Source of the DNA: Escherichia phage Delraymugoa
Sequence record: OR896825.1
Reading direction: 5' to 3' (one strand)
Length of the DNA: 64,000 nucleotides
Part shown: positions 1,175 through 64,000 of the stretch, piece by piece
Layout: every line of letters begins with the position of its first letter
Position numbering within the stretch: position 1 is the first letter of the stretch
Program-made: the position numbers and the translations under genes
Notes under the pieces: generated by a model
The model's database searches: none
Told to the model about the DNA's origin: nothing
What the model saw: only the letters and a program-made list of their open reading frames with translations

Positions 1175-1182
1175 TATAAATA
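1175..1182 (+). promoter_or_regulatory. T4-type late promoter (TATAAATA) upstream of gp36
   Basis: Exact TATAAATA about 34 nt upstream of the gp36 ATG; GAGG Shine-Dalgarno at 1205-1208. Confidence 0.6.
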
Positions 1183-18787: not shown

Positions 18788-18815
18788 ATTATAGAGAATC
18801 TCCCTTGTATGTCAA
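18788..18815 (-). promoter_or_regulatory. sigma70-type early promoter inside terminator-like stem-loop (PeSL-like)
   Basis: TTGACA-N16-TATAAT; -10 in loop of GGGAGA..TCTCCC stem followed by TTTTCTTTT; -35 abuts gp39 stop. Confidence 0.6.
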
Positions 18816-18818
18816 GTG

Positions 18819-20642
18819 TTATGATTGCATCCAAATTTTGCGCTGATCTGCATCTTCACTATAGAGCAAATCGAATAGCTCTTTATAGTTTTCCGGTAAC
18901 GTGATGATCTCCATGACAGGATCGTTGATCACGCGATGATAGTCTGATTCTGTGAGCGATGCTAAACCTTTGATATATCGAATGCTATAACCTTTGATAT
19001 TATCTCGGTCGTTCTCGAAATCTTCTAGGTCATAATACCATCGAACATCATCACCTTTCTTTGGTTCCGCAATGATAATAGGTGTTTTGATAAACCGGAT
19101 TCGTCCATCTTCGAACAATTCAGGCCAACGTGCAAAGAAAGAGATCAGACTAGGTTTAATAGACCCGATCCCGTCAGTATCAGCGTCGGTCATAATCGCA
19201 ATATTTTTGTATTGCATAACTTCCAATGCATCAACACCAAATTGCAAGCCAGTGATCGCCATGATGTTAAAAATTTCGGCGTTCTTAACGATCTTTGCCT
19301 CCGGTTGTTCCCACGTTGTAAGAGTTTTGCCTCGCAACGGGAAACCTCCATGTAAATCTTGATCGCGTACAGAGATCAGATAGTTGATCGCGGAATCACC
19401 TTCCGTCAAAAACAGGGTAGTTTCTGCGTCAGTTCCAATAAGGTTAGCTTTAACGTGTTTTGCCACCTTAGCCCGTTTCGCTGCCTTTGCTGCCTTAGTC
19501 GCTGCCGCTTTATCTGCTGCCTCTTTGCGTGCCAGGACTACAGCAATAATAGGCATGATAATGTTTTCTTTCTTAGCAATGGCTTTAGCCAGCTTTTTAA
19601 AATCAAGATCAATATGACGCTTGATATCACCAGTTGGATTAGTCAATCGTTCTTTTGTCTGTGAATCAAAACGAAGGTTAGGCAATTCACGAACAATAAG
19701 AATACAGGTCAATCCAGACTTAACCGCAGCTTTAGTAACATCAACCTTATATTCTTTCTTGATTCGTTTTACAATCTCTTCACAAAGATCATCTGTCACA
19801 TAATCAACGTGTGTTCCCCCGTTTTTGGTAAACAGACCATTAGCAAAGGATACTGATTTAAAACCTTCTCCCTCGACCGCAGGAACTAGGGCAAGTGAAA
19901 AGTTTTTATCTTCAATGACAAACGGATCATCATTGTATAGTTTAGCATAATCCTTGAACTTACTAACAATACGTTTACCATTAAACTTAAACGTGATCTT
20001 AGGAAAGATTACGCTCAATGATTGCAGACGATCATGAACAATATCTAAAACAGAGTTGTCCATCATATAACCTTCGAAGTGGTCGAAGTCTGGACAAAAT
20101 GTAACCTTCGTTCCCTTCAATTTTGATGGTTTTGATGACCATGTGATATTTTCAGCACCGTTTGTGCACTGTACGGTCATTTCTGTTTCGCCGTCACAGG
20201 TCACACCAGTAAACCAATCGCTAAAGAAATTTGACAACGACGACCCCACACCGTTCATCCCTTGCGTTAATCGATTGGTATCATCAAAGTTAGACCCTGC
20301 TTTTGTTCGTGTCCATGCGGCTACAGGTTGCGGAATCTGCGTGCCCTCTGGGGTAGTAACCATATGTTGAGGAATACCGCGACCATTGTCTGTTACCGTA
20401 ACAATATTGTTTTGGATATCGACGCTAATCACATTGGCAAATTCAAAATTAGTGCGGATCGCCTCGTCTACAGAGTTGTCGATAATCTCATCAATGATTT
20501 TAACCAGCCCAGGAACATATGAAATTTTTGTCCATTTACCGAACAGGAAACGTTGATGTTCTTCGTAAGTTGTTGATCCTATATACATTCCTGCACGCTT
20601 AAGGACATGTTCACGATCAGATAAAATGCGGAACTCACTCAT
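18819..20642 (-). CDS. 39: DNA topoisomerase II large subunit gp39 (GyrB-like ATPase, fused gp39+gp60 form)
   Basis: GHKL/GyrB N-terminal motifs; 607 aa is about T4 gp39+gp60 combined; T4 synteny. Confidence 0.9.
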   Translation of the reverse strand: MSEFRILSDREHVLKRAGMYIGSTTYEEHQRFLFGKWTKISYVPGLVKIIDEIIDNSVDEAIRTNFEFANVISVDIQNNIVTVTDNGRGIPQHMVTTPEGTQIPQPVAAWTRTKAGSNFDDTNRLTQGMNGVGSSLSNFFSDWFTGVTCDGETEMTVQCTNGAENITWSSKPSKLKGTKVTFCPDFDHFEGYMMDNSVLDIVHDRLQSLSVIFPKITFKFNGKRIVSKFKDYAKLYNDDPFVIEDKNFSLALVPAVEGEGFKSVSFANGLFTKNGGTHVDYVTDDLCEEIVKRIKKEYKVDVTKAAVKSGLTCILIVRELPNLRFDSQTKERLTNPTGDIKRHIDLDFKKLAKAIAKKENIIMPIIAVVLARKEAADKAAATKAAKAAKRAKVAKHVKANLIGTDAETTLFLTEGDSAINYLISVRDQDLHGGFPLRGKTLTTWEQPEAKIVKNAEIFNIMAITGLQFGVDALEVMQYKNIAIMTDADTDGIGSIKPSLISFFARWPELFEDGRIRFIKTPIIIAEPKKGDDVRWYYDLEDFENDRDNIKGYSIRYIKGLASLTESDYHRVINDPVMEIITLPENYKELFDLLYSEDADQRKIWMQS

Positions 20643-62771: not shown

Positions 62772-62810
62772 AAAAACGAAAAAGCCACCCTTTCGGATGG
62801 CTTTTGATTA
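62772..62810. terminator. bidirectional rho-independent terminator
   Basis: GCCACCC-TTTC-GGATGGC hairpin with T-runs on both sides; same family as the 49727-49760 element. Confidence 0.55.
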
Positions 62811-63035: not shown

Positions 63036-63434
63036 TTAAGACAGTCGAGTGAGTTTATAAATTGTTTTAAAACATAGAGCTTTGATATCGTCTAAAACGC
63101 TCTGTAACGAGCTATCAACATCATTATAAATCTCACTAGCCATTTGCGTTAACTCTTGCAAATAGGCAATTTCGCTAATCTCCTTGCGGACGACCAACGT
63201 TGGCTGATAACGACCAGTGATCCCAATATTGGTTTCAGTGAAATCATCAACCAATTCTTGCATTTCAAGATAGAACTCTTCTAGAGCCTTATGTTTTGCA
63301 TAAGATCCAGGACCAGTTACCCCAAAATGCGCAGAATGCATATAAGTAACACTCATCAGACATTCACCGATAAAGCGGTCAACTTTATTAGCTTTCCCCT
63401 CTTCGGACGTCTTTCGAAAATCACTGAATTTCAT
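63036..63434 (-). CDS. hypothetical protein (132 aa)
   Basis: Start moved to ATG (MKFSDFRK) with GGAGAA Shine-Dalgarno; lies downstream of rI. Confidence 0.45.
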   Translation of the reverse strand: MKFSDFRKTSEEGKANKVDRFIGECLMSVTYMHSAHFGVTGPGSYAKHKALEEFYLEMQELVDDFTETNIGITGRYQPTLVVRKEISEIAYLQELTQMASEIYNDVDSSLQSVLDDIKALCFKTIYKLTRLS

Positions 63435-63723
63435 GTTCTCGATTCTCCATATTATGCAACATAACAAACTGTTGTGCGGCATATTCCCCCATAATAAAAC
63501 ACTGCTTAGAATCCATACATTTACTACGAGCATACATCTTCATAATATGGGCATGAAATTTCTGGCTGGTTTCAATGGAAGGAGATATTTTGTTTACATA
63601 TACTATCATTGCACCGTCGAAATAATCAGTAAAGTCACCAGTTGGATCATATTGATCAGCACTGACACTTCCGACCGCAGTCAAGCATATTGCCGCTGTT
63701 AGAGTTTTACGAATAAATGACAT
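63421..63723 (-). CDS. rI: lysis inhibition regulator rI-like secreted protein (100 aa)
   Basis: Signal peptide or anchor MSFIRKTLTAAICLTAVGSVSA; about 100 aa; adjacent to tk as in T4; late promoter upstream. Confidence 0.6.
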   Translation of the reverse strand: MSFIRKTLTAAICLTAVGSVSADQYDPTGDFTDYFDGAMIVYVNKISPSIETSQKFHAHIMKMYARSKCMDSKQCFIMGEYAAQQFVMLHNMENREHEIQ

Positions 63724-63732
63724 AAGTCATTC

Positions 63733-63772
63733 CCCCAGATTAAAAATATTCAGTTATATTTATAATCTGGGG
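63733..63772 (-). promoter_or_regulatory. 10-bp perfect inverted repeat that sequesters the rI Shine-Dalgarno in read-through transcripts
   Basis: CCCCAGATTA (63733-63742) pairs with TAATCTGGGG (63763-63772); the Shine-Dalgarno GGGGGA lies in the 3' arm. Confidence 0.55.
63757..63764 (-). promoter_or_regulatory. T4-type late promoter TATAAATA for rI
   Basis: Exact TATAAATA on minus strand about 35 nt upstream of rI ATG, inside the inverted repeat. Confidence 0.6.
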
Positions 63773-63791
63773 CTTTATTTATGATTAACTC

Positions 63792-64000
63792 TTATTTGGT
63801 AGTACCGTCAATAAAATGTTTACGGCACACAGAGACATATTTATCCTCTGCACCAACTTCTATTTGAGCACCATCGCGAATAACATTACCCTCTTTATCT
63901 ACACGAAGGACCATTGTTGCTTTCTTGCCACAATGACAAATACCCTTCATTTCGACCAGTTTATCAGCAAATGCCATTAATGCCGCAGATCCTTCAAATA
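63792..64000 (-). CDS. tk: thymidine kinase, C-terminal part (5' end outside window)
   Basis: ORF open to window end; C-terminal zinc motif CHCGKKA...CRKH typical of thymidine kinases; adjacent to rI as in T4. Confidence 0.6.
   Translation of the reverse strand, partial: FEGSAALMAFADKLVEMKGICHCGKKATMVLRVDKEGNVIRDGAQIEVGAEDKYVSVCRKHFIDGTTK

Follow-up and report, generated by a model that had tools for sequence, protein, structure and literature searches.

The leader of the antiholin gene rI in Escherichia phage Delraymugoa encodes an RNA hairpin (hairpin 1) that is interlocked with both a late promoter box and the rI ribosome-binding site (RBS). We analysed a stretch of 64,000 nucleotides (nt) of this phage (OR896825.1; the window, to the whole of which the coordinates refer), where hairpin 1, rI, the upstream thymidine kinase gene tk and the downstream gene rI.-1 are all located on the minus strand, which corresponds to the mRNA sense. 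We consider it likely that the hairpin acts on rI as a translational switch operated by promoter choice, such that transcripts reading through from tk would fold and hide the RBS, and late transcripts initiated within the hairpin would leave it exposed. In T-even-type phages, lysis timing and lysis inhibition are set by RI, which serves as both sensor and antiholin; the protein is unstable, and its dose and timing must match the accumulation of the holin T.

The genes tk and rI are co-oriented and separated by a 68-nt spacer, in which the order in the mRNA sense is the tk stop codon TAA, gagttaatcataaataaag, CCCCAGATTATAAATAT, aactga, ATATTTTTAATCTGGGG, gaatgactt and the rI start codon ATG (63723). 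The elements that make up the switch candidate are as follows.

63756-63772, minus strand: 5' arm of hairpin 1, CCCCAGAUUAUAAAUAU, present on read-through RNA only.
63750-63755, minus strand: loop of hairpin 1, AACUGA (6 nt), which holds the predicted late start at G63751 or A63750.
63733-63749, minus strand: 3' arm of hairpin 1, AUAUUUUUAAUCUGGGG, predicted to stay in late RNA as its 5' leader; it carries four of the five G's of the Shine-Dalgarno sequence.
63757-63764, minus strand: TATAAATA, a T4-type (gp55) late promoter box and perfect match, inside the 5' arm and 33 nt before the AUG.
63765-63772, minus strand: the eight nucleotides of the 5' arm that lie outside TATAAATA, namely CCCCAGAU (CCCCAGAT); the partner segment in which compensatory changes would restore pairing of the 5' arm is AUCUGGGG (ATCTGGGG).
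63732-63736, minus strand: Shine-Dalgarno sequence GGGGG, 8 nt before the AUG, which forms a duplex of -8.4 kcal/mol with the 3' end of the 16S rRNA.
63421-63723, minus strand: rI, encoding an antiholin of 100 amino acids, with its ATG from 63723; assigned by PF24205, the T4-like virus antiholin family (E 1.6e-23), by annotation and by alignment with T4 RI.

A preliminary description of this site had recognized an inverted repeat around a 20-nt loop, with the late promoter overlapping the 5' arm and the loop and the Shine-Dalgarno sequence in the 3' arm. The perfect 10-nt arms, CCCCAGATTA (63772-63763) and TAATCTGGGG (63742-63733), are indeed 20 nt apart, but the supposed loop is mostly helix because pairing runs on beyond a single U·U mismatch through six further A-U pairs, giving a 17-pair helix with 17-nt arms and a loop of 6 nt. 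The promoter box, read from 63764 to 63757, does overlap the 5' arm, where it shares 2 nt with the outer 10-nt arm; it then extends into the inner stem, which is what had been taken for its loop portion. Likewise, the 3' arm accommodates all of the Shine-Dalgarno sequence except the fifth G, which lies just outside it.

The folding energy calculation proposed as a check of this structure yields -20.1 kcal/mol for hairpin 1, compared with -6.6 +/- 2.3 kcal/mol for dinucleotide shuffles (z -5.8), and none of the 200 shuffles folds as well. Within the stem, 13 of the 17 pairs are A-U, and a CCCC/GGGG clamp lies outside the AT-rich promoter. Six perfect 10-bp inverted repeats are present in the 64 kb against 1.8 expected; a 10-bp repeat alone is not rare, whereas its coincidence with a promoter and a Shine-Dalgarno sequence is exceptional. 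A search of Rfam returned no family match at E <= 1.

The degree of masking was assessed by partition-function calculations of the cost of opening, which compared read-through RNA in four contexts with the predicted late RNA. Opening of the Shine-Dalgarno sequence costs 13.2-14.4 kcal/mol in read-through RNA, in keeping with the earlier suggestion that RNA from tk would fold and hide the RBS, as against 2.7-3.5 kcal/mol in the predicted late RNA. For the entire segment from the Shine-Dalgarno sequence to the AUG, the corresponding values are 19-20.5 and 8.2-9.2 kcal/mol. The identical calculation for T4 gene e gives 12.6-13.7 kcal/mol for read-through and 0.8-3.4 kcal/mol for late RNA, and from these near-equal costs we infer that the mask on rI would be as strong as that of the paradigm. 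Across the window, occlusion was expressed as the free-energy cost of freeing positions -14 to +3 from all pairing at rI and at 108 crudely called gene starts. At 21.9 kcal/mol, occlusion is strongest at the rI initiation region among all 109 (median 5.2, s.d. 2.8); the highest of the others, 17.4 kcal/mol, looks like a mis-called start on a terminator. A survey of late promoters in the window together with 100 kb of the record of Escherichia phage ECD7, the pieces being analysed separately, found 14 perfect copies of TATAAATA, 12 of them with a downstream gene. The early-minus-late difference in opening cost is largest for rI (13.5 kcal/mol), and for nine of the other 11 pairs it falls between -2.5 and +3.1 kcal/mol, indicating that late promoters are not generally buried in masking hairpins here.

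Within the window, TATAAATA occurs twice, compared with 5.85 copies expected, and both copies are on the correct strand 33-41 nt upstream of a start codon. The other copy (1175-1182, plus strand) lies 33 nt before a 496-codon open reading frame on the plus strand (1216-2706). The window is mostly early-strand, and rI is its only early-strand gene with a canonical late promoter. In T4 late promoters the consensus TATAAATA occupies positions -13 to -6 (PMC1524935); such promoters need no -35 element and are followed by an AT-rich segment (PMC2988020); at rI, 16 of the 18 nt downstream of the box are A or T, and the genome encodes gp33. By the -13 to -6 rule, late RNA is predicted to begin with G63751 or A63750 at the loop's 3' edge, and since this start falls in the loop, such RNA would lack the 5' arm. 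The proposal that late RNA starting in the loop cannot form the stem would thus hold for the predicted +1, although such RNA would not be fully open, as hairpin 2, described below, stays.

The surrounding transcription unit comprises the following elements.

63792-64000, minus strand: 3' end of the early gene tk (thymidine kinase), upstream of rI and the expected source of read-through, supported by its open reading frame, the GenBank annotation and PF00265; its TAA is at 63794-63792.
63773-63791, minus strand: unpaired 19-nt spacer from the tk stop codon to hairpin 1; in phage JK32 it is diverged or deleted, and the hairpin is not.
63036-63434, minus strand: rI.-1 (DUF5856), which overlaps the 3' end of rI by 14 nt and belongs to the rI transcription unit.
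62780-62805, minus strand: intrinsic terminator, an 11-bp stem followed by a T run, which closes the tk-rI-rI.-1 unit.

Within 4 kb upstream, sigma-70-like promoters occupy intergenic positions, and between these and the terminator after rI.-1 no other convincing terminator was found on the sense strand, so early read-through from tk into rI is to be expected. In addition, the 19-nt spacer is probably long enough for the helix to withstand ribosomes that terminate on tk.

In the mechanism that we propose, sigma-70 transcripts from upstream of tk would run early in infection through tk into rI. The 17-pair hairpin 1 would form in this read-through RNA and stack on hairpin 2, leaving the whole Shine-Dalgarno sequence, the spacer and the G of the AUG paired, such that 30S subunits could not bind. 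Late in infection, replication-coupled transcription (gp55/gp33/gp45) would start from TATAAATA in the 5' arm, at approximately 63751 in the loop, and the RNA produced, having the 3' arm only, would be unable to form hairpin 1 and would expose the Shine-Dalgarno sequence. RI would therefore be made mainly late, as its target holin T accumulates, and hairpin 2, which is kept in the late RNA, would probably hold RI translation at a modest level.

The second hairpin is stacked directly on the first.

63715-63732, minus strand: hairpin 2, GAAUGAC-UUAU-GUCAUUU, 7 bp, -8.3 kcal/mol, z -2.4.

Hairpin 2 includes the fifth G of the Shine-Dalgarno sequence as well as the spacer, and it places the A and U of the AUG in its loop and the G in its stem. 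Small hairpins over the rI AUG, with different, co-varying sequences, are also observed in T4 (GAGGCC/GGCCUU, -10.4 kcal/mol, z -2.1; L002 1485-1505, minus strand), Muldoonvirus VP8 (-10.7, z -2.3; L005 893-909), Serratia phage 4S (-9.8; L006 880-897) and Morganella phage Rgz1 (-8.3; L008 867-882). In these, the AUG is situated at the junction of the loop and the 3' arm, and codons 2-3 pair with the Shine-Dalgarno sequence or the spacer; no such hairpin is present in phages PG7, Acj61, 133, Miro and UP87. The AUG hairpin may throttle RI translation or, in phages that have rI.1, may couple it to translation of rI.1. We also note that phage Skers (MW748999, L019 226-232, corresponding to window positions 63713-63725) carries a deletion of 13 nt through which the usual rI ATG is lost along with the loop and the 3' arm of hairpin 2; the rI frame is rescued from an ATG located 2 nt after GGGGG, a very poor Shine-Dalgarno spacing. 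This deletion may represent an r-type (rapid-lysis) variant selected in propagation.

The segment 63300-64000 (701 nt) is identical to that of Escherichia phage ECD7 and phage FL37, and shares 95-100% identity with 57 RB49-like phages (genus Krischvirus, Straboviridae). With respect to the deposited ECD7 RefSeq NC_041936, the coordinate offset shifts by 1 nt between approximately 62001 and 63401, so that the window is not base-for-base the same as that record, although 63300-64000 remains 100% identical. An alignment of nine Krischvirus phages, to which three metagenome contigs were added, reveals that the outer nine pairs of hairpin 1, TATAAATA and the Shine-Dalgarno sequence are invariant, and all Krischvirus variants fold at -16.6 to -20.1 kcal/mol. 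The contigs were recovered by scanning IMG/VR and metagenomes with the pattern TATAAATA-N(18-32)-AATGACTTATGTC, which detected these three further Krischvirus contigs, all of known variants, and 17 chance matches; a related-locus search with the rI protein returned nothing beyond the same genome. Even JK32, the most divergent member, retains the helix, despite an rI of only 78% identity and a shorter, rewritten spacer 5' of the hairpin. When ECD7 (63421-63723) is compared with JK32 (L004 901-1200), rI is a local hotspot of divergence at the nucleotide level, the flanking tk and rI.-1 being 93-94% identical, a pattern suggestive of antiholin exchange or diversifying selection.

Several observations weigh against the proposed switch, or at least against its strictest form. 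No compensatory changes are found in hairpin 1 among the nine phages and three contigs. The only variable position of the helix is the partner of A10 (U, C, A or an inserted A), which breaks the tenth pair in RB49-, JSE- and GEC-3S-type phages, and this pair is therefore not under strong selection. Because ECD7 and JK32 are so similar outside rI, the invariance of the 20 stem nucleotides carries little weight; moreover, the promoter and the Shine-Dalgarno sequence are each constrained for their own reasons, so that the only free stem positions are CCCCAGAU and AAUCU. Hairpin 2 is present in early and late RNA alike, and the late RNA thus retains structure over its start codon, such that to describe it as freely translated would be an overstatement. 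Finally, lysis inhibition in T4 is inducible fairly early, and a strictly late RI would then represent a difference between lineages.

The first two of these points, together with the close relatedness of the phages sampled and the six perfect 10-bp repeats in the window, are also what would be expected if the hairpin were a coincidence, produced by a self-complementary AT-rich promoter region and accompanied by early transcripts too scarce, too unstable or too irrelevant to matter for rI. We think this improbable, given the z score of hairpin 1, the top rank of rI in occlusion among the 109 gene starts and in early-minus-late difference among the 12 late promoters, and the position of the CCCC/GGGG clamp outside the AT-rich promoter. 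Furthermore, the promoter, the predicted start in the loop and the Shine-Dalgarno sequence together reproduce a validated mechanism exactly.

The distance between the outer arms varies among these phages, being 19 nt in JK32, 20 nt in ECD7 and 21 nt in GEC-3S. This variation bears on the idea that the near-perfect palindrome, which is centred on the promoter, is a DNA operator at which a dimeric phage or host protein would occlude the late promoter, much as I-TevI autorepresses its own late promoter (PMC2988022). Each added nucleotide would rotate one half-site relative to the other by approximately 36 degrees, and a spacing of 19-21 nt thus fits an RNA helix better than a dimeric protein operator. 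Although rI.-1 bears the NCBI name 'starvation-inducible transcriptional regulator', this is a label only and Pfam gives just DUF5856; T4 and other genera have rI.-1 but no palindrome, and no candidate binding protein was identified. As the energetics at the RNA level already explain the layout, and in view of the varying half-site spacing above all, we judge an operator to be very unlikely indeed.

A role of the hairpin mainly as a terminator or 3'-end stabilizer, either for the early tk RNA or to block antisense transcription into tk, with an incidental overlap of the RBS, is suggested by existing records. Two GenBank entries call the hairpin a terminator, that of TB34 on the antisense strand and that of G37-3 on the sense strand (ARNold, -11.16). 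On the plus strand, the stem folds at -19.4 kcal/mol (z -6.2) and is followed by CUUUAUUUAU, a fitting tail, and a genuine terminator occupies the same position, just 5' of the late promoter, in sister genera. On the sense strand, however, the tail GAAUGACU is not a U tract and the predominantly A-U stem is not G+C-rich. A canonical intrinsic terminator in this orientation is unlikely for lack of the U tract, and it was rejected as a candidate. The automated terminator annotations in several Krischvirus genomes are accordingly probably wrong on the sense strand. A consensus scan called neither strand, although the mismatch in the stem may hide the hairpin from that tool. As regards the antisense direction, there is no plus-strand gene or strong plus-strand promoter nearby, the nearest candidate being a 9/12 match at 63662-63691, and no antisense unit is evident. 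Termination would also leave unexplained why the 3' arm coincides with the Shine-Dalgarno sequence and the late +1 with the loop. We therefore regard a mainly terminating or stabilizing function as unlikely, and note that terminator and switch roles could coexist.

Comparison with other genera places the promoter-operated switch in a wider setting. A late promoter before the rI unit is widespread among the genera compared. In T4 and Rgz1, TATAAATA directly follows tk and is followed by rI.1, with no structure; the T4 tk-rI.1 spacer has no significant structure (z +0.4), and by eye only a weak 6-bp GGUUAG/CUAACU pairing surrounds the promoter. VP8, 4S, Karamvirus PG7 and Slopekvirus Miro have a terminator immediately 5' of TATAAATA before the rI operon, in the form of a G+C-rich hairpin followed by a T run; it abuts or overlaps the box (L005 720-760, L006 710-750, L007 700-735 and L012 725-765, respectively), and that of Miro is annotated as a terminator. 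Placing a terminator ahead of the promoter apparently gives these four genera a different means of shielding the rI unit from early transcription. They resemble Krischvirus in the conserved late promoter and in the apparent aim of insulation, but their hairpin precedes TATAAATA and acts on transcription, whereas the Krischvirus hairpin spans the promoter and would act on translation. Krischvirus lacks rI.1, and its promoter is wrapped in a helix whose 3' arm is the RBS. Judged by sequence, three arrangements thus precede the rI unit, namely none, a transcriptional insulator and a translational mask, and the existence of the latter two suggests that silence of the unit early in infection has been selected for.

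According to Golec et al. (PMC2962797), who cite Paddison et al. 1998, the rI operon of T4 is transcribed from two promoters, a late one located between tk and rI.1 and an early one 3.3 kb upstream. Time-resolved omics data classify T4 rI as middle RNA and late protein, and group rI.1 with e and segB, all three having early RNA and late protein; this offers the switch little support, because the late-protein class also contains gp41 and RegA (PMC9697503 and its supplement). The T4 operon (rI.1-rI-rI.-1) shares with the locus described here the succession of tk, TATAAATA directly after the tk stop codon and the rI unit, as well as a small hairpin over the rI Shine-Dalgarno sequence and AUG. It differs in the presence of rI.1 between the promoter and rI, in the lack of significant structure between tk and rI.1 and in the additional early promoter reported. 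Thus, the preliminary assertion that rI displays the arrangement known for T4 e and soc applies to the Krischvirus lineage but not to T4 itself, where the late promoter follows tk without a hairpin and rI.1 intervenes.

This class of mechanism has been textbook knowledge for T4 since the 1980s. Two reviews assign to it T4 e, soc, 49, I-TevI/II/III and segB as well as Aeh1 mobE (PMC3014915, PMC2988022). For gene e, the RBS-masking hairpin with internal late promoters (McPheeters et al. 1986, as summarized in PMC3014915) was established by experiment, and the same review puts its effect on translation at approximately 100-fold. Like rI here, e is an early-strand gene downstream of early genes, with TATAAATA overlapping the 5' arm, the Shine-Dalgarno sequence in the 3' arm and late RNA that lacks the 5' arm (as predicted for rI); the opening costs are near-identical and both genes belong to the lysis pathway. 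Unlike rI, e encodes an endolysin rather than an antiholin, has two promoters instead of one and is experimentally proven rather than predicted. The rI leader is further distinguished by a longer helix of 17 pairs, mostly A-U with the CCCC/GGGG clamp, and by a second hairpin at the AUG that would persist in late RNA. The remaining cases (soc, 49, I-TevI/II/III, segB and mobE) likewise concern late genes in early or middle polycistronic units that are silenced by sequestration of the RBS and released by a promoter inside or just after the 5' arm. None of them regulates lysis timing, and for the several that are mobile endonucleases, toxicity or intron splicing provides the rationale. Neither review lists rI among the switch cases, although the structure may have been mentioned elsewhere before, and literature searches on RB49 and lysis inhibition returned nothing relevant. 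Within this literature, RB49 and phi-1 are noted to lack gene e (PMC3014915, PMC2988022).

In the ECD7 record, the endolysin gene cwlK, which is the functional counterpart of T4 e and is classed by Pfam and NCBI as a peptidase-type enzyme, is preceded (L044 6166-6230, minus strand) by no more than a variant box, TCTAAATA, and lacks an obvious masking hairpin; the e-type switch of ECD7 therefore appears to reside on the antiholin and not on the endolysin. Second to rI in early-minus-late difference (11.0 kcal/mol) is the start of ECD7 gp53 (L044 16600-16660, plus strand), at the divergent junction of gp4 (minus) and gp53 (plus), where, as a miniature of the rI layout, a 6-bp CACCCU/AGGGUG stem with the Shine-Dalgarno sequence in AGGGUG encloses TATAAATA in a 33-nt loop. 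The difference for gp51 (L045 8614) is smaller, at 7.0. Elsewhere in the window (18789-18880, minus strand), a perfect-looking sigma-70 promoter (TTGACA...TATAAT) is followed by the 13-bp hairpin GGGAGAUUCUCUAUAAUGGGAGUCUCCC and a T run; the crude gene caller put a start codon here, and the element is probably a promoter/terminator module and not a masked gene start.

Taken as a whole, the rI leader is real and probably functional, and adds to the known e/soc/49/I-TevI class a new member that is confined to the RB49-like lineage. It leaves the understanding of this mechanism class unchanged. If the switch operates as proposed, RI would be kept late through translation in RB49-like phages and through a terminator in sister genera, with neither device in T4, providing a natural three-way comparison for why RI should be off early. 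A broader and more doubtful possibility, which we put forward only tentatively, is that RI is governed by a two-lock leader, in which the promoter-opened 17-pair helix replaces rI.1 and the terminator of the sister genera, and a conserved, possibly regulated hairpin at the AUG throttles the dosage of RI and thereby the set-point for lysis timing and lysis inhibition. If so, both the timing and the dose of RI would be under control at the RNA level across T4-like phages, a layer that lies outside current models of lysis inhibition.

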